This document shows, one piece after another, positions 3,298 to 33,540 of a DNA stretch of 64,000 bases; the first letter of the stretch is position 1; each line of letters opens with the position of its first letter. A program made the translations under genes and the position numbers. The notes below the pieces were generated by a model. The model was not told the DNA's origin. It did no database searches and saw only the letters and a program-made list of their open reading frames with translations. Origin of the DNA: Eubacteriales bacterium (GTDB lineage Bacteria; Bacillota; Clostridia; Oscillospirales; CAG-272). Location of the stretch: the NCBI GenBank assembly GCA_034086705.1, contig JAXDZV010000030.1, positions 82,933 through 146,932 on the forward strand. The letters run 5' to 3'.

Positions 3298-3564
3298 ATC
3301 GAACAAATAATAACGGCAATGACGAAGACGGTCGAAGCGTTTTGTTTGCAGAGAGTCGGCGGTAGGTGCAAGCCGATAGCGATCCCTTCACAGACCCATC
3401 CCTTCCGAGCCGGGAGGCTGAAGTACATACAGTAGGCTCTCTCCGTGAGGCTGCGTTAAAGCACAGGGCTTGTTAGAGCTCGATGAGCGGCGTTTTTTTA
3501 CGCAATTTTGAGTGGTACCGCGGGTTACACCCGTCTCAAAGAATTTTGAGACGGGTGTTTTTTA
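3298..3564 (+). promoter_or_regulatory. T-box leader 1 (tentative specifier AUC, Ile) with terminator
   Basis: Stem I elements: GA/K-turn TGACGAAG...CTTCCGAGCC, AG bulge AGAGAG and distal loop GGTAGGTGCAA. The T-box sequence TTGAGTGGTACCGCGGG lies at about 3508-3524. The terminator ACACCCGTCTCAAA/TTTGAGACGGGTGT plus a T-run lies at 3527-3564. The triplet just 5' of the basal CUUC helix is AUC (3398-3400). Confidence 0.85.
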
Positions 3565-3598
3565 TTTGTCCGACACAAAAAGAAGGAGATTCAGCAAA

Positions 3599-6281: not shown

Positions 6282-8576
6282 ATGGATATGTCAACAAAAA
6301 AACTCGATCAGCAAATCATGGAAATGGCGCACCGTATTCGCGAACTGCGTCAAATTGTCGGTTTATCGACAGAGCAGATGGCAAAATTTGCAGATATTTC
6401 ACACACGGAATACCTTGCATGTGAATCCGGCACACACGATTTGACATTTGCGTTTTTGTATCGTTGTGCACAGGCACTTGGCGTTGATGTCACGGATTTA
6501 ATCGAAGGAGCTAGCCCTCGCCTGCGTTCTTATACGGTCACACGCAGCGGAAAAGGGCAAAAAATCGAACAGGCACACGGTATGACATACTACAATCTTG
6601 CCGCCGCATTTCAGAACCGTATTGCGGAGCCTTTATACGTTGTTACGCAGTACAGTGAACAAGCACTTACAAAGCCAATTGCCCTGACAACGCACGAAGG
6701 GCAGGAATGCGATATTGTTCTGCGCGGACAACTGAAAGTGCAAATCGGTTCTCATACCGAAATTCTCGGTGAGGGAGACAGCGTGTACTATGACAGCAGC
6801 ACACCACACGGTATGGTTGCTCTGGGAGGACAAGATTGTCTTTTCTATGCAATCGTGCTCAATCCGCAGCCTGATGAATCCCCTGCACAGGTGTCAACTT
6901 CGAGCACGACTGCCCCGGCAATGCAACCAACACCTTTGCCACAACAGCAACAGGTTTGGCAAAAACACATCTGTGTCACCGAAGATACACACGGTACATT
7001 GACCTCCATTTCTTTTCCAAATGCCGACACATTTAACTTTGCTTTCGATATTGTAGACCGTTTGGGCACAGAAAAGCCTGACAAACTGGCAATGTTGCAC
7101 ATTGGTAAAGATCTTACAGAACGCCGGTTTACCTTTGCCGATATCAAACGAGCATCTGCGCAAACTGCAAACTATTTCCGATCCCTTGGCATTCAGCGCG
7201 GGGATCGTGTACTGCTGATTTTGAAACGGCACTATCAGTTTTGGTTTTCTGTGCTCGCTTTGCATAAACTTGGCGCTATTGCAATTCCCGCAACCAATCA
7301 ACTCAAGGAGCATGACATCACATACCGCCTGGAAAAAGCCGGCATCAGCGCCGTCATTTGTACGGCTGATGACGAAATCCCACAGCAAATGGAGCGTGCT
7401 GCAGCAGCGTATCCGTCTCTTTGCAAAATTCTGGTCGGTGCAAGCCGCGCAGGATGGCACAATTTTGACGCCGAATATCCTTTGTTCAGCGGGCGTTTTC
7501 CGCGACCTGCAGATGCTCCGTGCGGTGAAGACCCGATGCTGATGTATTTCACCTCCGGTACCACCGGCAATCCGAAAGTTGCTATGCATTGTTATAAATA
7601 TCCTTTAGGACATTTTGTGACGGCGCGCTATTGGCACAATGTCAATCCTGAGGGGCTACATTTGAGTATTGCCGATACCGGCTGGGCAAAAGCTGCATGG
7701 GGAAAGCTATATGGGCAATGGCTATGTGAGGCAGCCGTGTTTGTTTATGACTTTGACCGCTTTGACGCCTCGGTCATTTTGCCAATGTTTGCAAAGTACC
7801 ACATTACCACTTTTTGTGCCCCGCCAACGATTCTGCGTATGATGGTAAAACAAGACCTTTCCCGCTACGATCTGTCCAGTGTGCAGCATATGAGTACAGC
7901 AGGAGAAGCATTAAACCCGGAAGTCTTCCGACAATTTGAAGCTGCTACAGGGCTGCAAATTATGGAAGGCTTCGGACAGTCTGAAACCACAGTTGCACTT
8001 GCCAATCTCCGCGGTACAAAAATCCGGCCGGGGTCAATGGGCAAGCCGGTTGCGCTGTACGATATCGACCTTGTAGATGATGCCGGGAATTCTGTTCCCT
8101 GTGGCGAAGTAGGAGAAATTGTCATCCGAGTTGCAAACGGCGCGCCTTGTGGTTTGTTTCGCGGATATTACCGTGACCCGGAAAAAACCGCAGAATGCTG
8201 GCATGACGGATTGTACCACACAGGCGATACCGCATGGCGCGATGAAGAAGGATATTTCTGGTACGTCGGCAGAACAGATGATGTTATTAAATCCTCCGGC
8301 TATCGCATCGGTCCCTTCGAAATTGAAAACATCATCATGGAGCTTCCATACGTACTGGAATGCGGCGTAACCGCTGTGCCTGATGCACTGCGCGGACAAA
8401 TTGTGAAAGCCTGCATCGTATTAACAGCGGACCGCTCTCCCAGTGAAGCACTGGCAAAGGAAATACAAAATTATGTCAAGGCGCACACTGCGCCGTATAA
8501 ATATCCACGGCTGGTAGAATTCCGTTCGGAACTGCCGAAAACCGCCAGCGGAAAGATTATGAGAAATAAATTATGA
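6282..8576 (+). CDS. XRE-HTH + cupin domain fused to AMP-forming acyl-CoA synthetase, paralog 2
   Basis: Same architecture as 3599..5875, with long identical runs such as LPMFAKYHITTFCAPPTILRMM, DDVIKSSGYRIGPFEIE and ELPYVLECGVTA. A P/Q/S/T-rich linker separates the cupin from the enzyme. The start could be the ATG at 6288 rather than 6282, since RBS GGGAGAG abuts 6282. Confidence 0.9.
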   Translation: MDMSTKKLDQQIMEMAHRIRELRQIVGLSTEQMAKFADISHTEYLACESGTHDLTFAFLYRCAQALGVDVTDLIEGASPRLRSYTVTRSGKGQKIEQAHGMTYYNLAAAFQNRIAEPLYVVTQYSEQALTKPIALTTHEGQECDIVLRGQLKVQIGSHTEILGEGDSVYYDSSTPHGMVALGGQDCLFYAIVLNPQPDESPAQVSTSSTTAPAMQPTPLPQQQQVWQKHICVTEDTHGTLTSISFPNADTFNFAFDIVDRLGTEKPDKLAMLHIGKDLTERRFTFADIKRASAQTANYFRSLGIQRGDRVLLILKRHYQFWFSVLALHKLGAIAIPATNQLKEHDITYRLEKAGISAVICTADDEIPQQMERAAAAYPSLCKILVGASRAGWHNFDAEYPLFSGRFPRPADAPCGEDPMLMYFTSGTTGNPKVAMHCYKYPLGHFVTARYWHNVNPEGLHLSIADTGWAKAAWGKLYGQWLCEAAVFVYDFDRFDASVILPMFAKYHITTFCAPPTILRMMVKQDLSRYDLSSVQHMSTAGEALNPEVFRQFEAATGLQIMEGFGQSETTVALANLRGTKIRPGSMGKPVALYDIDLVDDAGNSVPCGEVGEIVIRVANGAPCGLFRGYYRDPEKTAECWHDGLYHTGDTAWRDEEGYFWYVGRTDDVIKSSGYRIGPFEIENIIMELPYVLECGVTAVPDALRGQIVKACIVLTADRSPSEALAKEIQNYVKAHTAPYKYPRLVEFRSELPKTASGKIMRNKL

Positions 8577-9271
8577 TTTCAACACAAAAACGTATCAGTC
8601 TTTTTTGCGGACATTACGGAAGCGGCAAAACCAACATCGCCATCAACTATGCATGTATGTTACGTGCAGCAGGGCTTGCGGTCAGCGTAGCAGATATGGA
8701 TATTGTCAATCCCTACTTCCGCACGAGCGATAGCCGTGAAATGCTCCAACGCGCCGGAATTGGGCTAGTCTGCTCCCCATATGCAGGATCAAATGTTGAT
8801 CTTGCTGCGCTTCCAAAAGAGCTATATGATTTGGTGCGTTGCCGTGACGTATATGCCGTGATGGACGTGGGCGGAGACGAACGCGGTGCGCTGGCATTGG
8901 GTCGTTATGTTCCGGAAATATTGGAAGAAGATAATTATGCAATGTACTTTGTTGTCAATTTTGCGCGCCCTTTAACACGCACCGCAGACCAGGCCTTCGA
9001 TATTCTGCGTGAAATTGAGCAAGCTGCGGGTATGCGCTGTACCGCGATTGTGCATAATACCAATCTTGCCACGCAAACTACGCCACAGACCTTGCTGCAC
9101 TACATCGATGCACTGCAACAGCTGCGCCAAAAAAGCGGCCTTCCTGTTGCCTTTTGGTCAGCTGAGCACACATTAATACCGGCCTTGGCCGATGCACTTG
9201 CGGCACATACGGACAAAGCATTATACCACGAGCTTTTTCCCCTGCATTTGCAGGCAAAAATAACGGATTGA
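8573..9271 (+). CDS. P-loop NTPase of unknown role (MinD/ParA/CooC-like size, Walker A GHYGSGKT)
   Basis: 232 aa, with an ATGA overlap onto the stop of the upstream synthetase. The Walker A motif sits near the N-terminus, and DMDIVNPYF and VMDVGGDERG are Walker B/switch-like segments. Confidence 0.7.
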   Translation: MISTQKRISLFCGHYGSGKTNIAINYACMLRAAGLAVSVADMDIVNPYFRTSDSREMLQRAGIGLVCSPYAGSNVDLAALPKELYDLVRCRDVYAVMDVGGDERGALALGRYVPEILEEDNYAMYFVVNFARPLTRTADQAFDILREIEQAAGMRCTAIVHNTNLATQTTPQTLLHYIDALQQLRQKSGLPVAFWSAEHTLIPALADALAAHTDKALYHELFPLHLQAKITD

Positions 9272-9285
9272 AAGGACGAAAAACC

Positions 9286-9492
9286 ATGGCAAAACTAACA
9301 TTTGACACCGAGCGATGCAAGGGCTGCGGGCTATGCATTCACGCCTGTCCAAAACACCTACTCGCCTTGGAAAAGAAGCACATCAACAAAAAAGGACACA
9401 CTCCCGTCTGCATGACAGATGTAACACAGTGCATTGGCTGTGCTTTCTGTGCCATTATGTGTCCCGATTGCGTCATTACCGTGGAAAAATAA
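9286..9492 (+). CDS. 2x[4Fe-4S] ferredoxin-type delta subunit of 2-oxoacid:ferredoxin oxidoreductase
   Basis: Two CxxCxxCxxxCP motifs (CKGCGLCIHACP, CIGCAFCAIMCP). Start placed at the ATG at 9286, downstream of AAAGGA; the ORF track begins at a TTG at 9268. Confidence 0.85.
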   Translation: MAKLTFDTERCKGCGLCIHACPKHLLALEKKHINKKGHTPVCMTDVTQCIGCAFCAIMCPDCVITVEK

Positions 9493-9504: not shown

Positions 9505-10584
9505 ATGAGCGAAAAAGTATTGATGAAAGGAAACGAAGCCATTGCAGAAGCTGCTATTATGGCAGGCTGCCGCCATTACTTCGGGTATCCAATTACACCA
9601 CAAACTGAAATCGCCGCATATATGGCAAAACGTATGCCGCAGATCGGCGGGTGTTTTTTACAAGCAGAGAGCGAAATTGCAGCTATCAACATGGTATACG
9701 GCGTTTCCTCAGCGGGGTATCGCGTTATGACCTCTTCTTCCAGCCCTGGGATTGCATTGAAAAGCGAAGGCCTATCCTATCTGGCCGGTGCTGACCTGCC
9801 AGCACTGGTGGTCAATGTACAGCGCGGCGGACCGGGCCTTGGAGGAATTCAGCCCTCGCAATCAGATTATTTTCAGGCAACCAAAGCCGGCGGACACGGT
9901 GATTTTCGAATGATCGTACTTGCTCCTGCTTCCGTTCAGGAAATGGCGAATTTAACTTTGTGCGGCTTTGCACTGGCAGATCAATATCGTATGACAGCAA
10001 TGATTCTCGCCGATGGTACAATGGGCCAAATGATGGAGCCGGTGAGCTTCGAGCAACCCCCTCTGCAGGAAGTGGAAAAACCCTGGGCAGTCCGTGGTAC
10101 TGAAAATATGCGTCCGCATAATATCATCAATTCTCTGTATCTGGTGCCGGAAGAGCTGGAACGAAAAAATGTGGAACGCTTTGCGCGCTATGCGGAAATT
10201 GAAAAGAAGGAAGCTCGCTGTGAAGAATACCACGTAGAAGACGCAGACATCATCGTCGTTGGGTTCGGCATTGCCGCACGTGTTGCCAAAAGCGCCGTAG
10301 ACGCGGCGCGGGCTCAGGGAATCCGCGTTGGGTTGATTCGCCCGATCACGCTTTGGCCATTTCCCAAAGAGGCGCTGTACCGTGCCGCTACACACGCTAA
10401 ACGTTTCATTTCAGTTGAGCTTTCTATGGGACAAATGGTGGAAGATATTTCACTTGCTATTCACTGCAAGGCGCCCGTGGACCTTTGCTTCCGTACGGGG
10501 GGGATGATTCCGTCTCCTGAGCAAGTTCTCAACGCCATTACAGATGCAAAAACAAAAATTGACACAGAAAGGACGCCTTGCTGA
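9505..10584 (+). CDS. vorB: 2-oxoacid:ferredoxin oxidoreductase alpha subunit (VorB-like, 3-methyl-2-oxobutanoate type)
   Basis: 359 aa. The N-terminus MKGNEAIAEAAIMAGCRHYFGYPITPQTEI is typical of the short POR/VOR/KOR alpha subunits, and the gene sits in a four-subunit operon. Confidence 0.85.
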   Translation: MSEKVLMKGNEAIAEAAIMAGCRHYFGYPITPQTEIAAYMAKRMPQIGGCFLQAESEIAAINMVYGVSSAGYRVMTSSSSPGIALKSEGLSYLAGADLPALVVNVQRGGPGLGGIQPSQSDYFQATKAGGHGDFRMIVLAPASVQEMANLTLCGFALADQYRMTAMILADGTMGQMMEPVSFEQPPLQEVEKPWAVRGTENMRPHNIINSLYLVPEELERKNVERFARYAEIEKKEARCEEYHVEDADIIVVGFGIAARVAKSAVDAARAQGIRVGLIRPITLWPFPKEALYRAATHAKRFISVELSMGQMVEDISLAIHCKAPVDLCFRTGGMIPSPEQVLNAITDAKTKIDTERTPC

Positions 10585-10600
10585 AGGCCGGAACATATGT

Positions 10601-11350
10601 ATGATCGTATTTGAAAAACCGAAGGTGTTAACCGACAAGCCGCTGCATTATTGCCCCGGCTGTACACATGGAATTGTTCATCGTCTGGTTGCGCAGGCGA
10701 TTGAAGAGCTTTCCATCGAAGGAAAAACAATTGGCGTTGTGCCGGTTGGCTGTTCTGTTATGGCATATGACTATTTCAAAACCGATATGGTAGAGGCCTC
10801 GCATGGGCGGGCGCCTGCCGTTGCAACCGGTCTGCGCCGTGCGTTACCCGACCGTGTGATTTTTACATACCAAGGCGACGGCGATCTCGCCTCCATCGGC
10901 ACTGCAGAAACAGTACATGCCGCCGCACGCAATGAGAATATCACCGTTATTTTTATTAATAACGCCATCTACGGTATGACAGGCGGCCAAATGGCTCCGA
11001 CTTCCCTTCCCGGCCAGGTAACGCAAACTTCCCCCTATGGCAGAGATGTCAAACAATGTGGTTATCCTGTGAAAATCTGCGAAATGCTGGCGCAACTGGA
11101 GGGCCCGGCTTATCTGGAGCGTGTTGCCGTTAACAACGTCAAACACGTGTTGGCAGCAAAAAAAGCGATTCGCCGTGCATTTGAAAACCAACTTGCAGGT
11201 AAAGGCTTTTCGCTGATCGAAGTGCTTTCCTCCTGCCCCACGAACTGGGGAATGACACCGGAAAAAGCCTTGGACTGGATAGAAGAAAAAATGATTCCGT
11301 ATTATCCGCTCGGCGTGTTTAAGGACAGAGACAAGGAGGCAGTTCAATGA
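10601..11350 (+). CDS. 2-oxoacid:ferredoxin oxidoreductase beta subunit (TPP-binding)
   Basis: HYCPGCTHG cluster-ligand motif and TPP motif GDGDLASIG...NNAIYGMTGGQ. Start trimmed to the ATG at 10601, after the alpha-subunit stop at 10584. Confidence 0.85.
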   Translation: MIVFEKPKVLTDKPLHYCPGCTHGIVHRLVAQAIEELSIEGKTIGVVPVGCSVMAYDYFKTDMVEASHGRAPAVATGLRRALPDRVIFTYQGDGDLASIGTAETVHAAARNENITVIFINNAIYGMTGGQMAPTSLPGQVTQTSPYGRDVKQCGYPVKICEMLAQLEGPAYLERVAVNNVKHVLAAKKAIRRAFENQLAGKGFSLIEVLSSCPTNWGMTPEKALDWIEEKMIPYYPLGVFKDRDKEAVQ

Positions 11351-11886
11351 GCACTACCAAGATTCTGATTGCCGGATTCGGTGGGCAAGGCGTACTGTTT
11401 GCCGGCAAATATCTCGCATATCAGGGATTGCTGGAAGGCAGACAGCTTTCCTGGCTCCCTTCATACGGGCCCGAAATGCGCGGCGGAACTGCAAATTGCA
11501 GTGTCATTCTTTCTGACGAACCAGTCGGCTCACCGATTGTCACAGAACCGGACGTTCTGATCGTCATGAACCTCCCCTCCTATGATAAATATGAAAGCAG
11601 TGTAGTTTCCGGCGGCCTTATCCTGCTGGACAGCTCGTTGATTGACCGACCCACCGCGCGTTCTGATGTGCGCACCGTCCGTGTACCAGCCACAGCAATG
11701 GCCCGCGAACAGGGCATTCCAACACTTGCCAATATGATCTTGCTCGGCCAGTTTTTTGCTTGCAGCGGCGCCGCTGATTTTGCCAATACCGATGCGGTAT
11801 TGAAAAAAGTAATCTCACAAAAACATATGGATCTCTTTGCGCTGAATCGCAAAGCGCTGGAGCTCGGATATCATTATCAGGCGTAA
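11347..11886 (+). CDS. 2-oxoacid:ferredoxin oxidoreductase gamma subunit
   Basis: 179 aa with an ATGA overlap onto the beta subunit. [14 protein letters not shown] is the typical gamma-subunit N-terminus. Confidence 0.85.
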
Positions 11887-11899
11887 AGGAGAAAACGAC

Positions 11900-12976
11900 A
11901 TGGAAATTCGCTATATTGCCCCCACAGAGCTTCGTGCGCATCCGGATGAAAGTGCGCTTGGCTTCGGCAAATATTTTACCGACCATATGCTCACCGTAGA
12001 GTATGATCGAGAAAATGGTTGGCACGACGCCTGCATTGCGCCATTCGGTCCAATCGCACTGCATCCGGCCTCAACCGTTCTGCATTACGGCTCTGAAGTT
12101 TTTGAAGGGTTGAAAGCTTATCGCGCGGCAGACGGTTCTGTCCGCCTATTTCGCCCCATTGAAAATGTACGACGCATGAACCAATCAGCAGAGCGCTTGG
12201 GGCTGCCACAAATGGACGAACAGGAAATGCTCTCTCTCATCCTTGAGATTGTTCGCAAAGATGAAGATTGGGTACCGCATTTACCAGGTACCTCCCTGTA
12301 CATCCGCCCGTTTTTATTTGGGAATGATGCAAATCTTGGTGTCCATTCCATTCATCGTGCCACCTTTGTCATCATTCTCTCACCGGTCGGCGCCTACTAT
12401 GCAGAGGGGATCAATCCTGTGAAAATCCGCATTGAAACAGAAGATGTCCGTGCCGTGCGCGGCGGCACCGGCTATGCAAAGTGCGGAGGAAACTATGCTG
12501 CTTCCGTGCGCGCCGGAGAAAAAGCAGAAAAAGAGGGCTTTACCCAGGTATTATGGCTGGACGGCGTTCATCGCAAGTATATTGAAGAGGTGGGCGCAAT
12601 GAACGTTATGTTTAAAATCAACGGCACCATCATCACCCCGCAGCTCACCGGATCCGTTTTGCCCGGAATCACACGAAAATCCTGTATTACGCTGTTGCAC
12701 GATTGGGGGTATTCCGTCGAAGAACGACTGCTCAGCGCCGAAGAGTTGTTTGCTGCAGCGGAAAGCGGTGCTTTGGAAGAAGCATTCGGCACTGGGACGG
12801 CTGCCGTTGTCTCTCCCATCGGTCTTTTGCGCATGAATGAACGCTCATTCACCGTCAACCACGGCAAAATTGGGCCGCTAACGCAGCGTTTATATGACAC
12901 TCTGACAGGAATCCAATGGGGTACATGCCCCGATCCGCACAATTGGATCTGCCCGCTGCGGAATACACAAGCATAA
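11900..12976 (+). CDS. ilvE: branched-chain amino acid aminotransferase (fold type IV, long form)
   Basis: 358 aa with FGKYFTDHM, YGSEVFEGLKAY, LYIRPF and GGTGYAKCGGNYAAS, which are characteristic of BCAT. Confidence 0.9.
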   Translation: MEIRYIAPTELRAHPDESALGFGKYFTDHMLTVEYDRENGWHDACIAPFGPIALHPASTVLHYGSEVFEGLKAYRAADGSVRLFRPIENVRRMNQSAERLGLPQMDEQEMLSLILEIVRKDEDWVPHLPGTSLYIRPFLFGNDANLGVHSIHRATFVIILSPVGAYYAEGINPVKIRIETEDVRAVRGGTGYAKCGGNYAASVRAGEKAEKEGFTQVLWLDGVHRKYIEEVGAMNVMFKINGTIITPQLTGSVLPGITRKSCITLLHDWGYSVEERLLSAEELFAAAESGALEEAFGTGTAAVVSPIGLLRMNERSFTVNHGKIGPLTQRLYDTLTGIQWGTCPDPHNWICPLRNTQA

Positions 12977-15806: not shown

Positions 15807-17627
15807 ATGATCAGAAAAGATTTGCGGAATGTTGCAATTATCGCCCACGTCGACCATGGGAAAACCACTTTGGTAGATGAAATGCTCAAGCAGGGCGGTA
15901 TTTACCGAGAAAATCAAGCCACCGAAGAACGTGTTATGGACAGTAACGCACTGGAGCGTGAAAGAGGCATCACCATTTTGGCAAAAAATACTGCTGTCCA
16001 CTATAAAAACACAAAAATCAATATAGTTGATACACCCGGACATGCCGATTTCGGCGGCGAAGTTGAACGTATTTTAAAAATGGTCAACGGCGTTATTTTG
16101 CTGGTGGATGCAGCCGAAGGCCCCATGCCACAAACCCGCTTTGTGCTGCAAAAGGCCCTGGAACTGCAGCATCCCGTTATCGTTGTTGTCAATAAAATTG
16201 ACAGACCGGATGCCCGCTTGGATGAAGTAGGCGATGAAATTCTAGAATTGCTGTTGGAGCTCGATGCAACAGACGAGCAGTTGGACAGCCCTATGCTTTG
16301 GTGCTCCGGTAGAGCCGGCACTGCATCGTACTCTCCCTATGAAGCCGGAACAGACCTCACGCCGTTGTTTGACACCATTTTAAAACACATTCCCGCCCCT
16401 TGCGGTGATGAAACAGCCCCGTTACAAATGCTTGTTTCCTCCATTGACTATAACGACTATGTTGGGCGCATCGGCATCGGCAGAATCGACCGTGGTGTAC
16501 TACAGCAAAATGCCGATGTCGTCATTACAAACTACCACAACCCGCAAACCGTTCGGCGCACAAAGGTCGTCAGTCTGTATCAAATCGACGGGCTTAAGCG
16601 CGTTCCTGTGGAAAACGCTATGGTGGGAGATATTGTTTGCTTTTCCGGCTGTGAGGACATTACGATCGGAGATACTCTTTGCGCTCCGGAAAAACCGGAT
16701 CCACTGGAATTTGTCAAAGTGAGCGAACCAACATTAGAGATGACATTCTCTGTCAATGATAGCCCTTTTGCAGGTCGAGAAGGAAAGTTTGTCACGTCTC
16801 GGCAACTGCGTGATCGCCTGTACCGCGAGCTGTTGAAAGATGTCTCTCTGCGCGTCAGCGATGGAGACACTACAGACAGCTTCAAGGTATGCGGCAGAGG
16901 CGAAATGCACTTGTCAATTTTGATAGAAACGATGCGCCGCGAAGGCTATGAAATGGCGGTCAGCACACCACGCGTGATAATGAAACAAATCGACGGCGCT
17001 ACCTGCGAGCCGATGGAGCATGTATACATCGATGTACCGGAAGAATCTGTGGGCGCCGTGATGGAAAAAATGGGGGCACGCAAAGGAGAACTGCTCGAAA
17101 TGGGCCTACACGGTTCTCGCATGCGTATCGAATATTCCATACCGGCTCGTTGCTTGTTCGGATATCGCAGCGAATTTTTAACGGATACAAAAGGCGAGGG
17201 AATTCTGAATTCCGTATTCGATGGCTATCAGCCCTTTAAAGGTGAGATCGCGCGCCGCTATACCGGTTCTTTGATTGCCTCCGAAACCGGTGAATCTACC
17301 TCCTACGGTGTTTTCAACGCGCAGGACCGCGGCAGCATGTTTATCTCAAACCAATGCCCTGTATATGAGGGAATGATCGTTGGGGAATGCCCTAAGATGG
17401 TGGACATTGCCGTGAATGTGTGCAAACAAAAGCATTTAACCGCCATTCGGTCCTCCGGTGCTGATGAAGCACTTCGTTTGGTTACACCGAAAACCCTATC
17501 CTTGGAAGAAGCCATTGAATTCATTGCAGACGACGAGCTGATTGAAGTTACGCCGAAAAATATCCGCTTACGTAAGCGCATTCTCAATACCGCATTACGT
17601 CTCAAAGCACAAAATAAAAAAGCGTAA
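15807..17627 (+). CDS. typA: translational GTPase TypA/BipA
   Basis: 606 aa with AIIAHVDHGKTTLVD, DTPGHADFGGEVER and NKIDR G-motifs, and EF-G-like domains. Confidence 0.95.
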   Translation: MIRKDLRNVAIIAHVDHGKTTLVDEMLKQGGIYRENQATEERVMDSNALERERGITILAKNTAVHYKNTKINIVDTPGHADFGGEVERILKMVNGVILLVDAAEGPMPQTRFVLQKALELQHPVIVVVNKIDRPDARLDEVGDEILELLLELDATDEQLDSPMLWCSGRAGTASYSPYEAGTDLTPLFDTILKHIPAPCGDETAPLQMLVSSIDYNDYVGRIGIGRIDRGVLQQNADVVITNYHNPQTVRRTKVVSLYQIDGLKRVPVENAMVGDIVCFSGCEDITIGDTLCAPEKPDPLEFVKVSEPTLEMTFSVNDSPFAGREGKFVTSRQLRDRLYRELLKDVSLRVSDGDTTDSFKVCGRGEMHLSILIETMRREGYEMAVSTPRVIMKQIDGATCEPMEHVYIDVPEESVGAVMEKMGARKGELLEMGLHGSRMRIEYSIPARCLFGYRSEFLTDTKGEGILNSVFDGYQPFKGEIARRYTGSLIASETGESTSYGVFNAQDRGSMFISNQCPVYEGMIVGECPKMVDIAVNVCKQKHLTAIRSSGADEALRLVTPKTLSLEEAIEFIADDELIEVTPKNIRLRKRILNTALRLKAQNKKA

Positions 17628-17683: not shown

Positions 17684-17712
17684 TTGACAAAAAAAGCGTG
17701 CTCTGCTACAAT
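17684..17712 (+). promoter_or_regulatory. sigma-70-type promoter of T-box unit 3
   Basis: TTGACA at 17684-17689, a 17-nt spacer, then TACAAT at 17707-17712. Confidence 0.6.
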
Positions 17713-17718
17713 GTATGC

Positions 17719-18007
17719 ATAAAATCAATAAACAAATGCGCAGATGGAATTACGTGTTTCCACAAACATGCTCCAGAGAGGCAGCGGTAGGTGCGAGCTG
17801 CAGCATGGGGGAGAAACGGTCTCATTCCGGAGCAGGATCTCGGAAGGGCGCTACGGTAAGTGTTGCCATAGTATGAGATCCCGGAGGCCCCGTTACCATG
17901 GCTGTAGGATTGAAAGATCCTGAATAAGTGACCGTCTATGGACGGTAAGCAGGGTGGTACCGCGAATTTGTTTCGTCCCTGAGGTCTTTGACCTCAGGGA
18001 CTTTTTT
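17719..18007 (+). promoter_or_regulatory. T-box leader 3 (specifier CUC, Leu) with terminator
   Basis: AGAGAG bulge, distal loop GGTAGGTGCGA, and specifier context GAAACGGU-CUC-A-UUCC-GGAGCA pairing with a 5' GGAA. The T-box sequence AGGGTGGTACCGCG lies at 17951-17964. The terminator GTCCCTGAGGT/ACCTCAGGGAC plus TTTTTT lies at 17975-18007. Confidence 0.85.
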
Positions 18008-18037: not shown

Positions 18038-19444
18038 ATGAAAAACATGCAGATATGCCAGATACAGGATGAAACGCTGTGTTGCCAGCAGCAGACACAA
18101 AAGGCCCTTTCTTTCCGTGCCCGTATGGAAATTATCGGAAAACTGATTGCTGCCGGCGTGAATCTTATTGCATTGCCGATACCTGAAAATGAAAAAGCAG
18201 ATGCCCTTTTGTTAGATACGGTGGCACCGCTTGGCGAAAATGTTTGTTATGTCATTTCCGTTTCCTCCGTAGCACAAGCCCAACGCGCAGCTGCCGTGCT
18301 TATGCACGCAGCCCACGCCCGGCTATGTGTAGAACTTCCTCTTTCTGCCATCGGTATGGAGTATTCTTTACACAAAAAAGAAAAAGACATGATCGGTTTT
18401 GTCACAGATTTAATCTCTTCCTGCCGTACTCTGTGCAATCAAGTCAGCTTTTGCGCCGCAGACGCCTTTCGGGCAGATGTTACTTTTCTGAAAAGTGCTG
18501 TACAGGCTGCCGTATCTGCAGGTGCTGATACTGTAATTCTCAAAGACAATGCCGGGATCGCTCTGCCGTGGACAACGCAAACGCTCTTCCAATCTGTTGC
18601 TCAGCAGTTGCCCGCATCTGTCTGTCTCGGCGCCGCTTTTTCAAATACTGCTTTCATGGCTTGCGCCAACAGCGCGTGTGCTGTCCGCAGCGGCGCTGTG
18701 ATACTGCTCAGCGCCATTGGCAGCAATACCTTACCGGATACTGCAGCGCTTGGGTACACTATGCAGAGTCTTTCGCATACAGAAAAATATACAACTGCTC
18801 TCGTTACAACAGAGCTTTCTCGCCTGTGCGATGCGGTGCGCGCACAGCTTTGCGGGGTAGAACGTACCACGCAGCAACAACGTACCCCCGAACAGTTTCG
18901 TTTGACCAAAGATGCCAGCGCCACAGAAGTCGCACAGGCAGCTCGCACGCTCGGATATGATCTTTGCGCAGAAGACGCCGATCGCCTGTATGAAGCATTT
19001 CGCCGCGTTTCGGAGAAAAAAACGGTTGACAGCCGCGAACTGGACGCATTGATCGCATCGGAAACAATGCAGGTGCGTCCCACCTATACATTGGAGAAAT
19101 ATCTTGTAAACGCAGGCAACGTGATGACTCCGGCCGCGCAAATCACATTGCGTCGCGGCGAAGACCGGTTACAGGGAATTTCGATGGGAGACGGCCCGAT
19201 TGATGCAGCATTTCTAACCATTGAACAAATAATTGGATGCCATTTCGAATTAGATGCATTCGAAATTCAAGCGGTAACGGAGGGCCGCGGCGCAATGGGG
19301 TCCGCCGTTGTCAGACTCCGGGCAGATGGAAAACTATATAGCGGTATGGGCAGTTCAACGGACATCATCGGCGCATCTATCCGCGCTTACTTAAACGCCA
19401 TCAACAAAATCGTGTATGATGAAATGCAGTCACAAACACTCTAA
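18038..19444 (+). CDS. 2-isopropylmalate synthase (LeuA)-like protein with degenerate active site and intact LeuA-dimer/regulatory C-terminal domain
   Basis: Start at the ATG at 18038 (RBS AAGGAG), because the ORF-track start lies in the T-box terminator. The N-terminal motif reads DETLCCQQQ where LeuA/CimA have DTTLRDGEQ. The HxH metal site is replaced by AAFSNTAF. The C-terminus GDGPIDAAF...AVTEGRGAMGSAVVRLRADGKLYSGMGSSTDIIGASIRAYLNAINK matches the LeuA allosteric domain. Confidence 0.75.
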   Translation: MKNMQICQIQDETLCCQQQTQKALSFRARMEIIGKLIAAGVNLIALPIPENEKADALLLDTVAPLGENVCYVISVSSVAQAQRAAAVLMHAAHARLCVELPLSAIGMEYSLHKKEKDMIGFVTDLISSCRTLCNQVSFCAADAFRADVTFLKSAVQAAVSAGADTVILKDNAGIALPWTTQTLFQSVAQQLPASVCLGAAFSNTAFMACANSACAVRSGAVILLSAIGSNTLPDTAALGYTMQSLSHTEKYTTALVTTELSRLCDAVRAQLCGVERTTQQQRTPEQFRLTKDASATEVAQAARTLGYDLCAEDADRLYEAFRRVSEKKTVDSRELDALIASETMQVRPTYTLEKYLVNAGNVMTPAAQITLRRGEDRLQGISMGDGPIDAAFLTIEQIIGCHFELDAFEIQAVTEGRGAMGSAVVRLRADGKLYSGMGSSTDIIGASIRAYLNAINKIVYDEMQSQTL

Positions 19445-19467: not shown

Positions 19468-21969
19468 ATGAAATTATGCTTTTCTACCAAAGGGTGGCAC
19501 GGCGTGCTTTGGCAAGATTTTGTGAAAACGGCACACGCACTTGGCTTTTCCGGTATTGAGTTGCACAATTTGCACGACCCGGTATTCGCACGTACCGGTT
19601 CGCCGCGAGATCCGTATGCTGCAGGACAAATCAAACACGATTTGTTTTGTAAAGGCTTGGAAATTCCCTGTATCGATTCCATTACAGATTTGTTAGACGA
19701 TACATCTGCCGAAGAAAAATGTGAAGAAATCAGTGTTTGTTTGCGCACTGCCGCAGATCTTTCTGTTCCGTATGTACGTGTGCGTGCATACGATCATCCC
19801 GGCGCCCCACAGGCACAAGATGATACAGTGCTTTATCTGTTGCAACGGTTGCTGCCCGTAGCACAAGCAGCAAATTGCGAGCTATTGCTTGAAACAGCGG
19901 GGCCGTATGCAGACACGGCACGCCTGCGTCGTTTACTCGATCGACTCGCTTGCGACGGCATCGGTGTGCTATGGGACCTATATGCACCATGCATGGAAAA
20001 AGCAGAACCCCCGCAGCAAACTGTCACCAACCTCGGCGCATTTGTACGCCATGTGCACATCCGCGATTTTGCTCCGGAAAGCGGTACTTTTTGCCTCATG
20101 GGAGAAGGCGCCGTGCCCACACAGACACTGATCGGAGCATTGGAAAGCATCAACTACGCCGGCCATATTTGCTTTGAGTGGGACCCCACCTGGCTGCCGG
20201 AAGCAGCAGACATGCATTTGGTCTTTGCTCACTTTCGCAGTTATATGAGCCGTTACGAAAAAAAAGCTGTACAAGAAATTTACTATAACAAGTTGCACAC
20301 CGGCCGTAGAATTTGGCCCAAAGAGGTTTTAATCCGCGAAACATTTCCACAGGTTTTGGATCGCGTAGCAGAAGAGTTCCCAGACCAAATTGCTTTTAAA
20401 TATACAACTTTGGATTATACGCGCACCTATGCACAATTTCGGCGAGATGTGGATACGTTTGCGCGCGCGCTGGTTGCGTTGGGTGTTAAAAGCGGCACAA
20501 AAGTCGCCGTTTGGGCAACCAATGTTCCGGCATGGTACATTGCATTTTGGGCAACTGTCAAAATCGGTGCAGTGTTGGTTACTGTAAACACTGCATATAA
20601 AATCCACGAAGCAGAATACTTGTTGCGCCAATCTGATACACACACACTGATTTTGGTTGAACGCTGCCAAGACTCTGATTATGCGGAAATTATCCGTACC
20701 CTTTGTCCTGAACTTATCGGCAAACCAGCGCGTGATGTTTTGCATGCCGAGCGTCTTCCTTTTTTACGCCGCATCATCACCGTTGGATTTCAGATGGAAG
20801 GCTGCCTGCGCTTTGAGGATGCGATGGCATTGGCAGATTCTGTTTCCGAAGAACGGATTCGCCGCCTTGCAGCTGCTGTTCAACCGGAGGACGTATGCAA
20901 TATGCAATATACCTCCGGCACAACCGGATTTCCAAAAGGTGTCATGCTCACCCATCACGGTGTCGTAAACAACGGAAAATGTATCGGAGACCGCATGGAT
21001 CTTTCCACCGCTGATCGGATGCTGATTCAGGTACCTATGTTCCACTGTTTTGGTATGGTACTGGCAATGACTGCCGCTATGACACACGGCGCAACGCTAT
21101 GTCCTCTACCTTATTTCTCTGCTAAAAATTCACTTGCTTGCATCAACGCAGAGCATATCACAGTCTTTCACGGCGTTCCGACGATGTTCATCGCTATGTT
21201 CAATCACCCAGATTACAAAAAAACAGATTTTTCGTATATGCGCACCGGAATTATGGCCGGATCGGGCTGTCCTGCAGATTTGATGCGTCGCGCAGCACAG
21301 CCGGATGAAATGAATATGCGGGGCATTGTTTCCGTATACGGTCAGACCGAGGCTGCACCGGGTTGTACCATGAGTGAGCTGGACGACCCATTGGATGAGC
21401 GCTGCGAAACAGTCGGGCATGCTTTGCCGCACGTTGAATGTCGCATCATCGATCCCCAAACGGGCGCAGAATGCGCCGTCGGGGAAAACGGCGAATTTGT
21501 TGCACGCGGATATAATGTGATGAAAGGATATTACAAAATGCCGGATGCTACTGCCGCTGCGATTGATGCAGATGGCTGGTTGCATACGGGAGACCTTGCT
21601 TGTAAAACCCCACAGGGGAACTATAAAATCACCGGCAGGCTGAAAGACATGATTATCCGCGGCGGCGAAAACATTTATCCCAAAGAGATCGAAGAATTTA
21701 TATATACCTGTCCTAAAGTACGTGATGTGCAGGTGGTTGGCGTAAGCGATCGGCAATACGGAGAAGAGATCTGTGCTTGTGTGATTCTCAAAAAAGGAGA
21801 ACAAATGACACAAGAAGAATTGCAAAGTTTTGTGCGCAGCCATATGGCACGGCATAAGGTGCCACGGTATGTCGATTTCATGGACACCTTCCCCATGAAT
21901 GCAGCGGGGAAAATTCTAAAATATAAATTGCGCGAACAGGCAGAACAGCGTCATTGCCAAAATGACTAA
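19468..21969 (+). CDS. xylose-isomerase-like TIM-barrel domain fused to AMP-dependent acyl-CoA synthetase
   Basis: 833 aa. The first ~265 aa look like a sugar-phosphate isomerase/epimerase (AP-endonuclease-2 type) barrel (GFSGIELH..., LLLETAG, FEWDP). The remainder is an ANL enzyme with YTSGTTGFPKGVMLTH, YGQTEA, LHTGDL and GGENIYPKEIE. Confidence 0.85.
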   Translation: MKLCFSTKGWHGVLWQDFVKTAHALGFSGIELHNLHDPVFARTGSPRDPYAAGQIKHDLFCKGLEIPCIDSITDLLDDTSAEEKCEEISVCLRTAADLSVPYVRVRAYDHPGAPQAQDDTVLYLLQRLLPVAQAANCELLLETAGPYADTARLRRLLDRLACDGIGVLWDLYAPCMEKAEPPQQTVTNLGAFVRHVHIRDFAPESGTFCLMGEGAVPTQTLIGALESINYAGHICFEWDPTWLPEAADMHLVFAHFRSYMSRYEKKAVQEIYYNKLHTGRRIWPKEVLIRETFPQVLDRVAEEFPDQIAFKYTTLDYTRTYAQFRRDVDTFARALVALGVKSGTKVAVWATNVPAWYIAFWATVKIGAVLVTVNTAYKIHEAEYLLRQSDTHTLILVERCQDSDYAEIIRTLCPELIGKPARDVLHAERLPFLRRIITVGFQMEGCLRFEDAMALADSVSEERIRRLAAAVQPEDVCNMQYTSGTTGFPKGVMLTHHGVVNNGKCIGDRMDLSTADRMLIQVPMFHCFGMVLAMTAAMTHGATLCPLPYFSAKNSLACINAEHITVFHGVPTMFIAMFNHPDYKKTDFSYMRTGIMAGSGCPADLMRRAAQPDEMNMRGIVSVYGQTEAAPGCTMSELDDPLDERCETVGHALPHVECRIIDPQTGAECAVGENGEFVARGYNVMKGYYKMPDATAAAIDADGWLHTGDLACKTPQGNYKITGRLKDMIIRGGENIYPKEIEEFIYTCPKVRDVQVVGVSDRQYGEEICACVILKKGEQMTQEELQSFVRSHMARHKVPRYVDFMDTFPMNAAGKILKYKLREQAEQRHCQND

Positions 21970-22044: not shown

Positions 22045-22929
22045 GTGCGCATGACAAGATATAACATTTTAAATCTTGCCGCCGGTCAAGGACTTGCCGG
22101 TAAGGAAAAAACCCCCCAAGGCATTGATTATTATACAAAATGCATCGGAGATGCACGGCTGTATGTAAAAGACCGCTGTTTGGCACATGCGGATGATCTT
22201 TGCTTTTGTGTGTATGGCGGAGACGGCACTATCAATGAAGTTGTCAGCGGGATTTTAGACGCAAATGCAGCAGATCGTGCCAGCGTTGGTGTCGTCCCGT
22301 ACGGTACGGGGAATGATTTTGCAAGAATTTTACAGCATATGCAGCAAGGGGATTCCTTGTGGTCCGATGTGATCCACTGGAATGATGCTTATGCCGTCAA
22401 TATGTTGAACATCGGCTTTGACTGTAGTGTAGTTGAAAAAACTGCACACATGAAAACGCTGCCGCTGATCAGCGGAAGTTTTGCATATATTTTAGGGGTC
22501 GCCGATGTACTGTTTCACAAAATCTCCCGCTCTCTGTACATCCGCTATACAGATGCAAATGGGAAGCAAGGCAGTTATGACGGGCAGGTGCTACTATGTG
22601 CCGTAGCCAATGCACCGTATTGCGGCGGCGGCTTTTGTGCTGCGCCGGTCGCGCAATATGATGATGGTCTTTTAGATCTCATGATTATCCGAAAGGTTTC
22701 GCGCGCACGGTTTTTGTCGTTGGTTTCCGCATATCGCAGCGGTACCCACGTCAATTCCGATGGCGATGTAACTCGACGCTTTGCAGACATTATTTCCTAT
22801 CACCGTTGTAAGTCCATCCGCATAGAAGGCATGGAACATGTCTGCGCAGACGGTGAAATATTTCCATGTACTGCAGCCGACATTGGCGTTTTTCCGCATG
22901 CCATACGCTTCTTGCGTGTGCATGCATAG
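22045..22929 (+). CDS. diacylglycerol/lipid kinase family protein (YegS/BmrU-like)
   Basis: 294 aa with the GGDGTINEV motif and GTGNDFAR. Confidence 0.75.
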   Translation: MRMTRYNILNLAAGQGLAGKEKTPQGIDYYTKCIGDARLYVKDRCLAHADDLCFCVYGGDGTINEVVSGILDANAADRASVGVVPYGTGNDFARILQHMQQGDSLWSDVIHWNDAYAVNMLNIGFDCSVVEKTAHMKTLPLISGSFAYILGVADVLFHKISRSLYIRYTDANGKQGSYDGQVLLCAVANAPYCGGGFCAAPVAQYDDGLLDLMIIRKVSRARFLSLVSAYRSGTHVNSDGDVTRRFADIISYHRCKSIRIEGMEHVCADGEIFPCTAADIGVFPHAIRFLRVHA

Positions 22930-22957
22930 ATTTGCAACAAATATAGGAGGAAATAGA

Positions 22958-23830
22958 ATGAATCGATTTAAAATTGGTGTAATGGCAGACTGGTTAGGCG
23001 GCACGTTCCGTCAAAACATCGAGACAACCGCAGCCATGGGCGCACAAGGCGTGCAACTATATGCAACAGGAGAATTCAGCGATTTCACACCGGACACCGT
23101 AAAAGGAGAGCGTCTGCGAGAAACAAAACGAATTCTTGCCGCAAACGGGATCGAAGTTAGCGCCTTGTGCGGCGACCTCGGCGGGCACGGATTTCAAATC
23201 CCGAAGGACAATGTTTGGAAAATTGAAAAATCCAAGCGCATCATCGATCTGGCGCTGGAGCTTGGTGCAAACGTTGTAACCACGCATATCGGTGTTGTCC
23301 CTGACACGGTTAATGACACTTATCAAATTATGCAACAGGCTTGTAATGAGCTGGCTGAATATGCCCAAAGCGTCGGTGCATATTTTGCCGTAGAAACCGG
23401 GCCGGAGAAAGCCGCCATGCTCAAGGAGTTTTTAGACAGCCTTTCTGCCCGCGGCGTGCGTGTAAACTTTGACCCCGCCAATTTGGTAATGGTAACGCAA
23501 GACGATCCGGTTGCTGCTGTACCGCTCCTGGGGGATTACATTGTCCATACCCATGCCAAAGACGGTGTAAACCTCAAGCCCTGCGATCGACATGCGATTT
23601 ACAATAGCTTTGCTGAGGGCGGCGTAGACGGTTTTTCCGCAGGTGATTATATGAAAGAGCTCCCCCTCGGACAAGGCAATGTAGACTTTCCCGCCTATAT
23701 TGCAGCACTTGCTGCAATCGATTACCGTGGGTATCTCACCGTTGAGCGTGAGGTACGCGAAGACCCTCGGGCTGACATCGAAATGGCAGTCGGCTTTCTG
23801 AAAGAACTAACCGCATCTTATCAAATCTGA
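22958..23830 (+). CDS. sugar phosphate isomerase/epimerase (xylose-isomerase-like TIM barrel)
   Basis: Start at the ATG at 22958 after RBS AGGAGG. VVTTHIG, FAVETG, NFDPANL, HAKD and TVERE are typical barrel metal-site segments. Confidence 0.75.
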   Translation: MNRFKIGVMADWLGGTFRQNIETTAAMGAQGVQLYATGEFSDFTPDTVKGERLRETKRILAANGIEVSALCGDLGGHGFQIPKDNVWKIEKSKRIIDLALELGANVVTTHIGVVPDTVNDTYQIMQQACNELAEYAQSVGAYFAVETGPEKAAMLKEFLDSLSARGVRVNFDPANLVMVTQDDPVAAVPLLGDYIVHTHAKDGVNLKPCDRHAIYNSFAEGGVDGFSAGDYMKELPLGQGNVDFPAYIAALAAIDYRGYLTVEREVREDPRADIEMAVGFLKELTASYQI

Positions 23831-32024: not shown

Positions 32025-33239
32025 CTACTGCAACACAACTTTCTTGAAATTCTTCTTACCACGACGCAAAACAACACCCTCTTGCAGCGCCACGGATGAA
32101 AAAGACGCATGGATATCCGCAATTTTTTCTCCGTCCGCACTGACACCCCCCTGTTCCACCGCACGCCGTGCCTCCGAACGCGATGCACAAAGGCCCGCGG
32201 CACAAAGCAACGTCAAAATATCTGCCTGATTATTTGTAAGAATGTCCGTGCCAATAAAAATTTGGGGAGCATCTGCACCGCCACTGAAAACGGAACGTGC
32301 TGCCGCACGTGCCTGCTCTGCCTGTGCCGTTCCATGTACCAAAGCAGTAAGCTCATATGCCAGAATTTCTTTTTTCTCATTGATACGGGTGTCCGGCCAA
32401 TTTTCCATTTGTGCAATGTCCGAAAGCGGCAAAAACGTCAGCATGCGCAAGCATTTCATCACATCTGTATCTGCAACATTGCGCCAATACTGATAAAACT
32501 CAAACGGTGTGGTTTTTTTCGGGTCAAGCCATACCGCCCCCTTTTGCGTTTTGCCCATTTTTTTACCCTCTGAATTCAGCAGAAGCGTGATCGTCATCGC
32601 GTGTGCATCTTTGCCAAGCTTACGGCGTATGAGCTCCGTGCCGCCAAGCATATTGCTCCATTGATCGTCACCGCCAAATTGCAGATTACAGCCGTATTTT
32701 TCATACAGTTCCAGAAAATCATAGCTCTGCATCAGCATATAATTAAATTCCAAGAAAGACAGCCCTTTTTCCAAACGCTGTTTATAGCATTCCGCACGTA
32801 GCATCTGATTCACAGAGAAACATGCTCCCACTTCGCGTAAAAAGGCAACATAATTCAGCTGCATCAGCCAGTCTGCGTTGTTCACAAGCAACGCTTTTCC
32901 TTCGGAAAAATCAATAAATCTGCTCATCTGTTCCCTAAAGCAGGCAACGTTATGTGCAATGTTCTCAACCGTCAGCATAGAACGCATATCGGTCCGTCCG
33001 GAAGGATCTCCCACCATAGCGGTACCGCCGCCGAGCAAAGCAATCGGGCGGTTGCCCGCCATTTGTAGCCGCTTCATCAGGCAAAGTGCCATAAAATGTC
33101 CAACATGCAGACTGTCTGCCGTCGGGTCAAATCCGATATAAAACACCGCACGCCCCGTATTGATCAATTCTGCAACTTTTTCTTCATTGGTAACTTGCGC
33201 AATCAAGCCGCGCGCTTTCAGCTCTTCGTATACTGTCAT
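32025..33239 (-). CDS. tyrS: tyrosine--tRNA ligase
   Basis: 404 aa from the ATG at 33239 (RBS AGGAAGGAA). It has a HIGH-type motif (DSLHVGH), KMGKT (KMSKS variant) and a C-terminal S4-like domain. The upstream part of the track ORF is the T-box leader. Confidence 0.95.
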   Translation of the reverse strand: MTVYEELKARGLIAQVTNEEKVAELINTGRAVFYIGFDPTADSLHVGHFMALCLMKRLQMAGNRPIALLGGGTAMVGDPSGRTDMRSMLTVENIAHNVACFREQMSRFIDFSEGKALLVNNADWLMQLNYVAFLREVGACFSVNQMLRAECYKQRLEKGLSFLEFNYMLMQSYDFLELYEKYGCNLQFGGDDQWSNMLGGTELIRRKLGKDAHAMTITLLLNSEGKKMGKTQKGAVWLDPKKTTPFEFYQYWRNVADTDVMKCLRMLTFLPLSDIAQMENWPDTRINEKKEILAYELTALVHGTAQAEQARAAARSVFSGGADAPQIFIGTDILTNNQADILTLLCAAGLCASRSEARRAVEQGGVSADGEKIADIHASFSSVALQEGVVLRRGKKNFKKVVLQ

Positions 33240-33290
33240 TGTTCCGTTCCTTCCTAACAAAACTTTTATTGAAGAATTTTTTCTCCCGAT

Positions 33291-33535
33291 AAAAAACGCC
33301 CTCTGCCACACGCAGAGGGCGTTACAAACGCGGTACCACCTCAGTTCGTGTTCGCCAACACGAACACCTCTTCTCCCGATATAACGGTCGAACCGGCGCA
33401 GCCTACACAAAAAACTTTTTCTCTTCGGTGCGCAGCTCCCACGGTGTATTTCCAAAGTGCTCTGCCTCCGCCTTGCATCTTCCGGCGTCTTTCTGCACAC
33501 ATAACAGCTTTGTACTTCTCCGCGATCTTTGCTTT
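33291..33535 (-). promoter_or_regulatory. T-box leader 4 (specifier UAC, Tyr) with terminator
   Basis: Read on the minus strand: GGTGGTACCGCG (33329-33340), the terminator AACGCCCTCTGCGTGTGGCAGAGGGCGTTTTTT (33291-33323), and the specifier context GGAAA-UAC-A (UAC = 33446-33448). Confidence 0.9.
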
Positions 33536-33540
33536 TTTAC

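Follow-up and report, generated by a model that had tools for sequence, protein, structure and literature searches.

HisZ, a catalytically dead paralog of histidyl-tRNA synthetase (HisRS), is the regulatory subunit that gives histidine sensitivity to the short form of HisG, and the complex of the two has been demonstrated. In branched-chain amino acid synthesis, feedback is likewise exerted by the ACT-domain small subunit of acetohydroxyacid synthase (IlvN/IlvH), which has a branched-chain amino acid as its ligand. The present report concerns a gene in a stretch of 64,000 nucleotides (the window, at its full length) from a Eubacteriales bacterium of the class Clostridia (assembly GCA_034086705.1, contig JAXDZV010000030.1). 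Its product, called here the LeuA-like protein, descends from 2-isopropylmalate synthase, LeuA (TIGR00973/PRK00915; DRE-TIM metallolyase superfamily), but is no longer catalytic, and it may have become the leucine-sensing subunit of an acyl-CoA ligase encoded by the neighboring gene.

The resemblance to LeuA is extensive: the two share the HMGL-like barrel, subdomain II, a LeuA_dimer domain of two βββα units with the GxGPxDA leucine loop and, at the level of expression, an upstream leucine T-box, an element that often precedes real leuA in the Firmicutes. However, the LeuA-like protein has neither the catalytic and metal residues nor subdomain I, and its gene is always paired with that of an acyl-CoA ligase instead of with leuBCD; judging from the sequence, Claisen condensation of acetyl-CoA with a 2-oxo acid is predicted to be absent. 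Functionally, the closest analogy is with HisZ/HisG, in which a dead paralog of an enzyme that recognizes the pathway end-product acts as a non-catalytic subunit of the committed-step enzyme. The LeuA-like protein has lost catalysis, is under purifying selection and is obligately coupled in the genome to a catalytic partner, all in the manner of HisZ. The folds differ (class II aminoacyl-tRNA synthetase for HisZ versus TIM barrel plus βββα), HisG belongs to a canonical pathway whereas the ligase would serve a salvage route, and the complex and allostery demonstrated for HisZ are here a prediction. With IlvN/IlvH it would share the feedback control of a catalytic subunit by a distinct chain that has a branched-chain amino acid as ligand, but IlvN is not a dead enzyme and has another type of domain and another partner.

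Two further systems are relevant to the ligase. MbcS of S. aureus (PMC10026030) is a dedicated AMP-forming ligase that scavenges branched short-chain acids, as the ligases of the present locus may do; unlike them it stands alone, feeds fatty-acid synthesis and has no sensor modules, LeuA-like partner or T-box. It activates 2-methylbutyrate and isobutyrate and is poor on isovalerate (PMC10026030). Rumen ruminococci make leucine by isovalerate carboxylation (Allison 1962 and 1966, as cited in PMC7356843). The route that we propose, from isovalerate via isovaleryl-CoA and 2-ketoisocaproate to leucine, is the same, as are the organisms (ruminococci and gut Clostridia) and their habitat, but that work, as the citing paper presents it, was physiological. 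A literature search on the family, on LeuA pseudoenzymes, on genes for isovalerate carboxylation and on T-box-controlled ligases found nothing specific. To our knowledge, neither genes nor regulation have been assigned to the isovalerate carboxylation route.

A LeuA descendant without the LeuA active site

The gene (Table 1) has an AAGGAG ribosome-binding site 7 nt 5' of its ATG; gene callers chose the same start codon in four independent assemblies of the same species, and the open reading frame (ORF) is unbroken in six. Pfam recognizes both an HMGL-like domain (PF00682; aa 17-221, E 4e-20) and a LeuA_dimer domain (PF08502; aa 330-458, E 1e-28) in the product, but against all of the LeuA, CimA and HCS models of NCBIfam it scores far under the cut-off, at less than half of each; the top match, NF002086, reaches 211.5 bits versus a cut-off of 532. 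When aligned by HMMER with the solved isopropylmalate synthase (IPMS) structures, its DETLCCQQQT lies opposite DTTLRDGEQT and its AAFSNT opposite SAHCHND/HCHDD, and both motif losses are seen again when E. coli LeuA is the reference. In E. coli numbering, R13, D14, E16 and Q17 of the DRE motif, whose Arg and Asp bind the 2-oxo acid and the metal, are absent, the HxH ligands H202 and H204 have become Ala and Ser, the catalytic Glu of FSCEDAGR (E141) is an Ala and the metal Asn of GIGERAGN (N238) has been lost. Subdomain I, some 32-50 residues with AFAHSSGIHQDG (the GxxAFxHxSGIHQDG block, or H379/Y410 region of the M. tuberculosis enzyme), is deleted altogether, and the NCBIfam matches break at model positions 271 and 326. 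In M. tuberculosis LeuA this region carries H379, Y410, the acetyl-CoA groove and the relay of the leucine signal (PMC2704214). As four defining features were tested and found wanting, the protein is not a LeuA. A mere alignment shift that conceals intact catalytic residues was considered and rejected, three independent alignments and the two-segment HMM match being in agreement.

The AlphaFold2 (AF2) model of the protein (pLDDT 87.5) has a complete eight-stranded (β/α)8 barrel, a subdomain II of three helices and two βββα units; a disordered stump (aa 275-285) marks the precise site of the missing subdomain I. Foldseek places full-length M. tuberculosis LeuA at the top of its matches, including the leucine-bound structure 3FIG, and the predicted barrel superposes on the IPMS catalytic domains 3eeg and 3ewb with an rmsd of 2.2-2.4 Å and a TM score of 0.89.

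A profile search of 1.84 billion cluster representatives yielded about 115 full-length clusters (50% identity), all of one single-piece architecture; below these come the real LeuAs, whose match to the profile is split in two by the subdomain-I deletion. The top 120 relatives in the databases have lengths of 455-468 aa and share 42-45% identity with the window protein, and RDGEQ is missing from every one of them. The carriers amount to at least 585 species-level genomes, all of them Clostridia and mostly from the rumen or gut (Acutalibacteraceae, Oscillospiraceae, Ruminococcus, Lachnospiraceae, Christensenellaceae and Monoglobales), and the ORF is unbroken in more than 150 loci. Among 109 family representatives (50% identity), not one keeps H202, H204, N238 or the subdomain-I block, and every family member has the alignment gap at subdomain I. 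At the position of the former Arg the family has R, K or C, and at the next position there is no consensus. In the 109 representatives, the mean top-residue frequency is 0.34 in the former active-site columns, the least conserved part of the protein, as against 0.47 in the barrel and 0.68 in the regulatory domain. The dN/dS ratio, from 32 independent ortholog pairs, is ~0.1 in the barrel and ~0.05 in the regulatory domain; polymorphism within the window species amounts to six segregating sites, a number too small to gauge selection on the divergent copy of the window itself.

Taken together, these results bear out and extend the original prediction, which had been made from the letters of the sequence. 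Its replacement of the DRE motif by DETLCCQQQ holds to the exact coordinates, and that of the metal site by GAAFSNTAF holds as well, with a span of 18629-18655 where about 18629-18660 had been given; the C-terminal LeuA regulatory domain is present, but measures ~129 aa and not ~110. The losses proved consistent among the orthologs, being shared across the 109 representatives, and the view that this is a pseudoenzyme is strongly supported by catalytic elements missing family-wide, by active-site columns that are the least conserved and by strong purifying selection. The picture is also broader than the one first drawn, since the changes at the catalytic Glu and the metal Asn, the subdomain-I deletion, a large conserved family and a context of genes for 2-oxoisovalerate:ferredoxin oxidoreductase (VOR), branched-chain aminotransferase (BCAT) and two MbcS-like ligases have been added to it.

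Two observations on the wider family may be recorded here. While the window LeuA-like protein is 42-45% identical to its orthologs, the ligase domain of its partner is 74-80% identical to its own, and the candidate sensor subunit has evolved unusually fast in the window's lineage (metagenome-assembled genome (MAG) GCA_964317165.1). The three proteins P0266, P0271 and P0275 are full-length LeuA relatives (~503-516 aa) that keep the length of subdomain I and have partly degenerate motifs, for example TLCEGER with HQDN or TLCDGEQ with RYDC. These may represent intermediate stages, or else separate instances in which LeuA has degenerated.

The leucine pocket, the T-box and the partner ligase

For the regulatory domain, sequence searches of the PDB were unhelpful (the domain alone had no useful match, and the family profile gave only a weak one, to the LiCMS regulatory domain 3f6g), and the pocket was therefore mapped by adding E. 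coli LeuA and a fragment of M. tuberculosis LeuA, its sequence and numbering verified, to the family alignment. The leucine contacts of the M. tuberculosis enzyme are L535, A536, V551, Y554, A558, A565 and A567, and mutation at the positions of G531, G533 and A536 abolishes feedback inhibition in yeast (PMC2704214). In the window protein G531, G533, P534, L535 and A536 correspond to G384, G386, P387, I388 and D389, and V551, Y554, A558, A565 and A567 to L405, F408, A412, A419 and G421. All ten contact or feedback positions are at least 92% conserved in the 109 representatives, except that 412 is either Ala or Ser. Residue G421 aligns with G462 of E. coli LeuA, which we take to be a classical site of feedback resistance. 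By this alignment, the leucine-binding part of LeuA is the best-kept part of the LeuA-like protein.

The expression signals point to the same amino acid. The leucine T-box proposed in the original prediction is a genuine RF00230 match with a CUC specifier (Table 1), and at least 61 of the 81 loci have a T-box immediately 5' of the LeuA-like gene; 56 of these were found by motif and the remaining five came from 13 loci where the motif search had failed. Rfam confirmed a T-box in 16 of the 17 motif-found leaders tested. The specifiers, read with a loose pattern, by eye and with Rfam confirmation, are CUC in 54 leaders and CUG in two (56/56 read), and are therefore leucine codons in every case.

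The partner gene, which we call AP2-ligase, encodes a xylose-isomerase-like TIM barrel (AP_endonuc_2; aa 1-270) fused to an AMP-forming acyl-CoA ligase (aa 286-833). It lies directly 3' of the LeuA-like gene in 74/74 loci with enough downstream DNA, the pairing also being counted in 69/69 loci, and an independent scan seeded with the AP2 domain found the LeuA-like gene upstream on the same strand in 67/67 loci with at least 1.5 kb of upstream sequence; the median gap between the two genes is 9 nt. The close homologs of the ligase all carry the same AP2 fusion and are named only 'AMP-binding protein'. Its best NCBIfam match is PRK12583-like (648 bits versus a cut-off of 832), which places it in a different subfamily from MbcS. 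The ligase domain is 72-93% conserved, as compared with roughly 40-80% for the LeuA-like protein or the AP2 domain. In the latter, a GEG motif and an HxH..D motif are invariant across orthologs, while the E-D-H-E metal tetrad, intact in the window, is broken in 9 of 21 orthologs (E to K or Q, D to N, E to V, R or D); on sequence grounds, the AP2 domain may be a second non-catalytic pseudoenzyme module. Farther downstream, the ligase is followed by an Amidohydro_2 gene in 35/49 and 24/43 loci. This gene is absent from the window, where a YegS/DAGK-like lipid kinase and a second AP_endonuc_2 protein take its place; the kinase is confined to the locus of the window species, and no strong terminator separates it from AP2-ligase. 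The closest structures to the Amidohydro_2 protein (e.g., 11888-12697 of locus L001) are the uncharacterized BB4693 and decarboxylases of the ACMSD type.

Pathway neighborhood and proposed function

The LeuA-like/AP2-ligase pair has a second conserved set of neighbors: in 37 of 80 loci it is adjoined by one or two ligases with helix-turn-helix (HTH) and cupin domains, a small P-loop protein, a ferredoxin, VOR and BCAT. The VOR/BCAT and T-box/LeuA-like operons are contiguous in many other genomes, and are split in the window by a 780-aa fusion protein and typA. The two HTH-cupin ligases are paralogs of ~770 aa with an XRE-type HTH, a cupin and an MbcS-like synthetase, and of the ligases at the locus they are the most similar to MbcS; NF047394 (MbcS) is their best NCBIfam match, at 404 and 427 bits, under the cut-off of 850. 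This architecture resembles an enzyme that has incorporated a one-component regulator. It adjoins VOR/BCAT in many Clostridia, often as a tandem pair ~400 nt apart, and the search of the spacer between the two found no Rfam element. The small P-loop NTPase keeps its place, after the ligases and before the VOR ferredoxin, in almost every locus, and it may serve in the maturation of VOR, for its Fe-S clusters or a cofactor.

Table 1. Features of the window and of the LeuA-like protein (nucleotide positions are those of the window; aa, residues of the protein)
Feature	Position	Strand	Basis or remarks
Two HTH-cupin-acyl-CoA-synthetase fusions, MbcS-like ligase domains	3512-5875, 6282-8576	+	Pfam, NCBIfam
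CbiA/ParA-like P-loop protein	8573-9271	+	Weak CbiA/ParA/NUBPL-like similarity, no NCBIfam match
2x[4Fe-4S] ferredoxin	9286-9492	+	Pfam
VOR alpha/beta/gamma	9505-11880	+	VorB 535 bits, cut-off 399
BCAT (IlvE)	11900-12976	+	462 bits, cut-off 307
Nucleotidyl transferase/hexapeptide-repeat/phosphoglucomutase-like fusion, 780 aa	13200-15542	-	
typA	15807-17627		Between VOR/BCAT operon and T-box/LeuA-like operon
Sigma-70-type promoter, TTGACA-17 nt-TACAAT, extended -10 TG	17684-17712	+	11/12 consensus positions, best in scanned region
T-box leader	17732-17983	+	RF00230, 109.2 bits, gathering score 93, full-length model match
T-box specifier CUC (Leu), then A	17821-17823, A at 17824	+	cmscan alignment and sequence
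Conserved T-box sequence GGGTGGTACCGCG	17952-17964	+	UGGU pairs with ACCA 3' end
Intrinsic terminator, 12-bp stem with 8 GC pairs, then TTTTTT	17975-18007 (stem 17975-18001)	+	Sequence
LeuA-derived pseudoenzyme gene	18038-19444	+	Intact ORF, 468 aa
Degenerate DRE motif DETLCCQQQ (DTTLRDGEQ in LeuA)	18068-18094, aa 11-19	+	Alignments
Degenerate metal site GAAFSNTAF (S-x-H-x-H-D-D in LeuA)	18629-18655, aa 198-206	+	Alignments
Predicted leucine pocket (G384-D-G386-P387-I388-D389, then L405 to G421)	19187-19300	+	Alignment
LeuA-like protein: barrel	aa 1-272		AF2 and domain searches
LeuA-like protein: stump	aa 275-285		AF2 and domain searches
LeuA-like protein: subdomain II	aa 295-343		AF2 and domain searches
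LeuA-like protein: regulatory βββα x2	aa 351-467		AF2 and domain searches
AP2-ligase, obligate partner, 833 aa	19468-21969	+	Pfam
AP2 domain of AP2-ligase	19468-20277	+	GEG and HxH..D motifs
YegS/DAGK-like lipid kinase	22045-22929		In place of Amidohydro_2
Second AP_endonuc_2 protein	22956-23830		In place of Amidohydro_2, with lipid kinase
Tyrosyl-tRNA synthetase ORF, as listed	32025-33500		Start overlaps second T-box leader
Second T-box leader	33312-33538	-	103 bits; upstream of tyrosyl-tRNA synthetase gene

The LeuA-like protein is probably, as far as its sequence and context tell, the leucine sensor of a route from branched-chain fatty acids to amino acids in gut and rumen Clostridia. We favor, with a probability of roughly one half, the more specific reading that it senses leucine, in the manner of HisZ, as a non-catalytic subunit of what is probably the isovalerate-CoA ligase of an isovalerate-to-leucine route. 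The barrel of LeuA would have been retained as a structural module and its regulatory domain as a leucine-binding module; the protein would bind AP2-ligase, probably as a dimer through the regulatory domain, and the complex would render ligase activity sensitive to free leucine, much as HisZ renders HisG sensitive to histidine. AP2-ligase would convert isovalerate to isovaleryl-CoA, and the VOR and BCAT of the same neighborhood, with VOR working in the anabolic direction, would carry this on to 2-ketoisocaproate and leucine. Control would be exerted at two tiers, the same two as for genuine leuA: uncharged tRNA-Leu would turn on the gene pair through the leucine T-box, and the committed step would presumably be shut off by bound leucine. 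All three ligases of the set would feed VOR and BCAT. Since MbcS is poor on isovalerate, this substrate would be left for a third ligase, and it is the leucine T-box together with the MbcS specificity that leads us to assign isovalerate to AP2-ligase. The earlier suggestion of a leucine-sensing or scaffolding subunit that modulates the adjacent synthetase is the one that the comparative data (pairing, pocket and T-boxes) support best. More tentatively, the T-box, LeuA-like gene and AP2-ligase, along with the two MbcS-like ligases, VOR and BCAT, could be the genetic basis of the isovalerate carboxylation described in the 1960s, with the LeuA-like protein as the leucine feedback sensor of the isovalerate-CoA ligase.

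Several points weigh against this reading. A direct fusion of the LeuA-like protein with a ligase or an AP2 domain, which would have served as a Rosetta stone, was not found among the best 150 of the 1.84 billion representatives. The best NCBIfam and PDB matches of the ligase are generic and give no indication of substrate, and those of the AP2 domain and the Amidohydro_2 protein are likewise generic; the proposal explains neither the fused AP2 barrel nor the frequent Amidohydro_2 neighbor. About a quarter of the loci have no T-box directly upstream. The window copy is itself an outlier, with 42-45% identity to all of the others, no Amidohydro_2 gene downstream and no TxCD, a motif found in ~63-70% of the family with its Cys at the position of E. 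coli P169 (the window has I-L-K-D, with Lys for Cys). Finally, subdomain I, which relays the leucine signal in real LeuA (Y410 of M. tuberculosis), is deleted, so that any signaling would need a new route.

The most serious competitor, though clearly the less probable of the two, is a pure scaffold without any sensing: a dead LeuA dimer that either joins two AP2-ligases or tethers the ligase to VOR for the channeling of acyl-CoA, its regulatory domain being retained only as a dimerization module. The obligate gene pairing and a barrel under purifying selection without a conserved active site are both in keeping with this, and PF08502 is also the dimerization domain of LeuA. Moreover, DRE-TIM barrels are known in channeling complexes with CoA-dependent partners, and 4-hydroxy-2-oxovalerate aldolase/dehydrogenase structures are among the fold matches. 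However, constraint is stronger on the regulatory domain than on the barrel, and the best-conserved residues are those lining the leucine pocket and conferring feedback resistance upon mutation, namely the GxGP loop and the equivalent of E. coli G462; dimerization alone would not need them.

Lipid supply is an unlikelier explanation. Here the sensor and its partner would be the same, but the ligase would be a scavenging enzyme induced at low leucine to serve iso-odd branched fatty acids, like MbcS of S. aureus, scarce leucine meaning that no isovaleryl-CoA primers can be drawn from that amino acid. Ligases of the MbcS type are proven to feed FabH primers (PMC10026030, PMC11167679), and in the window the pair is followed by the YegS/DAGK-type lipid kinase with no strong terminator between. 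Nevertheless, this kinase is specific to the locus of the window species, the conserved neighbors are VOR and BCAT, which catalyze the steps from acyl-CoA to amino acid, and not fab genes, and feedback by leucine makes less sense for the supply of lipid primers.

More improbable still is that the barrel has acquired a new catalysis, be it metal-independent and possibly Cys-based, or a joint activity with both the AP2 barrel and the Amidohydro_2 protein towards a leucine-related metabolite. Purifying selection on the barrel, the TxCD motif in most of the family and the frequent gene for a member of the Amidohydro_2 superfamily (decarboxylases and hydrolases) after the ligase could be so explained. 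But no family-wide conserved residue occupies the former active-site positions, the subdomain with the catalytic His and the acetyl-CoA site is deleted, the AP2 tetrad is broken in close to half of the orthologs examined, and the window has neither the TxCD Cys nor an Amidohydro_2 gene. The original prediction had singled out two adjacent Cys residues as a possible sign of metal-independent chemistry; these residues, Cys15 and Cys16, fall at variable positions of the family, and a Cys-based chemistry was rejected for this reason. As for a functionless pseudogene, the decaying duplicate of a T-box-regulated leuA, the retained leucine T-box of the kind typical before Firmicutes leuA and the loss of all catalytic residues might suggest it, but the selection and synteny data (more than 150 intact loci, dN/dS of 0.05-0.1, at least 585 species, and strict synteny with a highly conserved partner) refute it.

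Significance for the gut and rumen Clostridia

These proteins constitute a new and widespread family of pseudoenzymes derived from LeuA, for which a HisZ-like role is plausible. The family would be a rare instance of a bacterial metabolic pseudoenzyme kept as a probable allosteric subunit, and would indicate how the regulation of a salvage route can draw on a sensor domain taken from an enzyme of the canonical pathway. Should the favored reading prove true, the regulatory domain of the canonical first enzyme has been exapted to control the first enzyme of an alternative route. There is also a practical consequence for annotation: NCBI names the family only 'alpha-isopropylmalate synthase regulatory domain-containing protein' and JGI wrongly calls one member '2-isopropylmalate synthase', so that a LeuA absent from this locus may be attributed to these organisms when their metabolism is reconstructed from gut and rumen MAGs. 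Fiber-degrading bacteria of the rumen have branched-chain volatile fatty acids among their classical growth factors, and the same acids serve as feed additives. The locus provides a concrete and testable set of genes for the conversion of these acids to amino acids and for its control, and the proposed route, if true, would explain the requirement of rumen and gut Clostridia for branched-chain volatile fatty acids.

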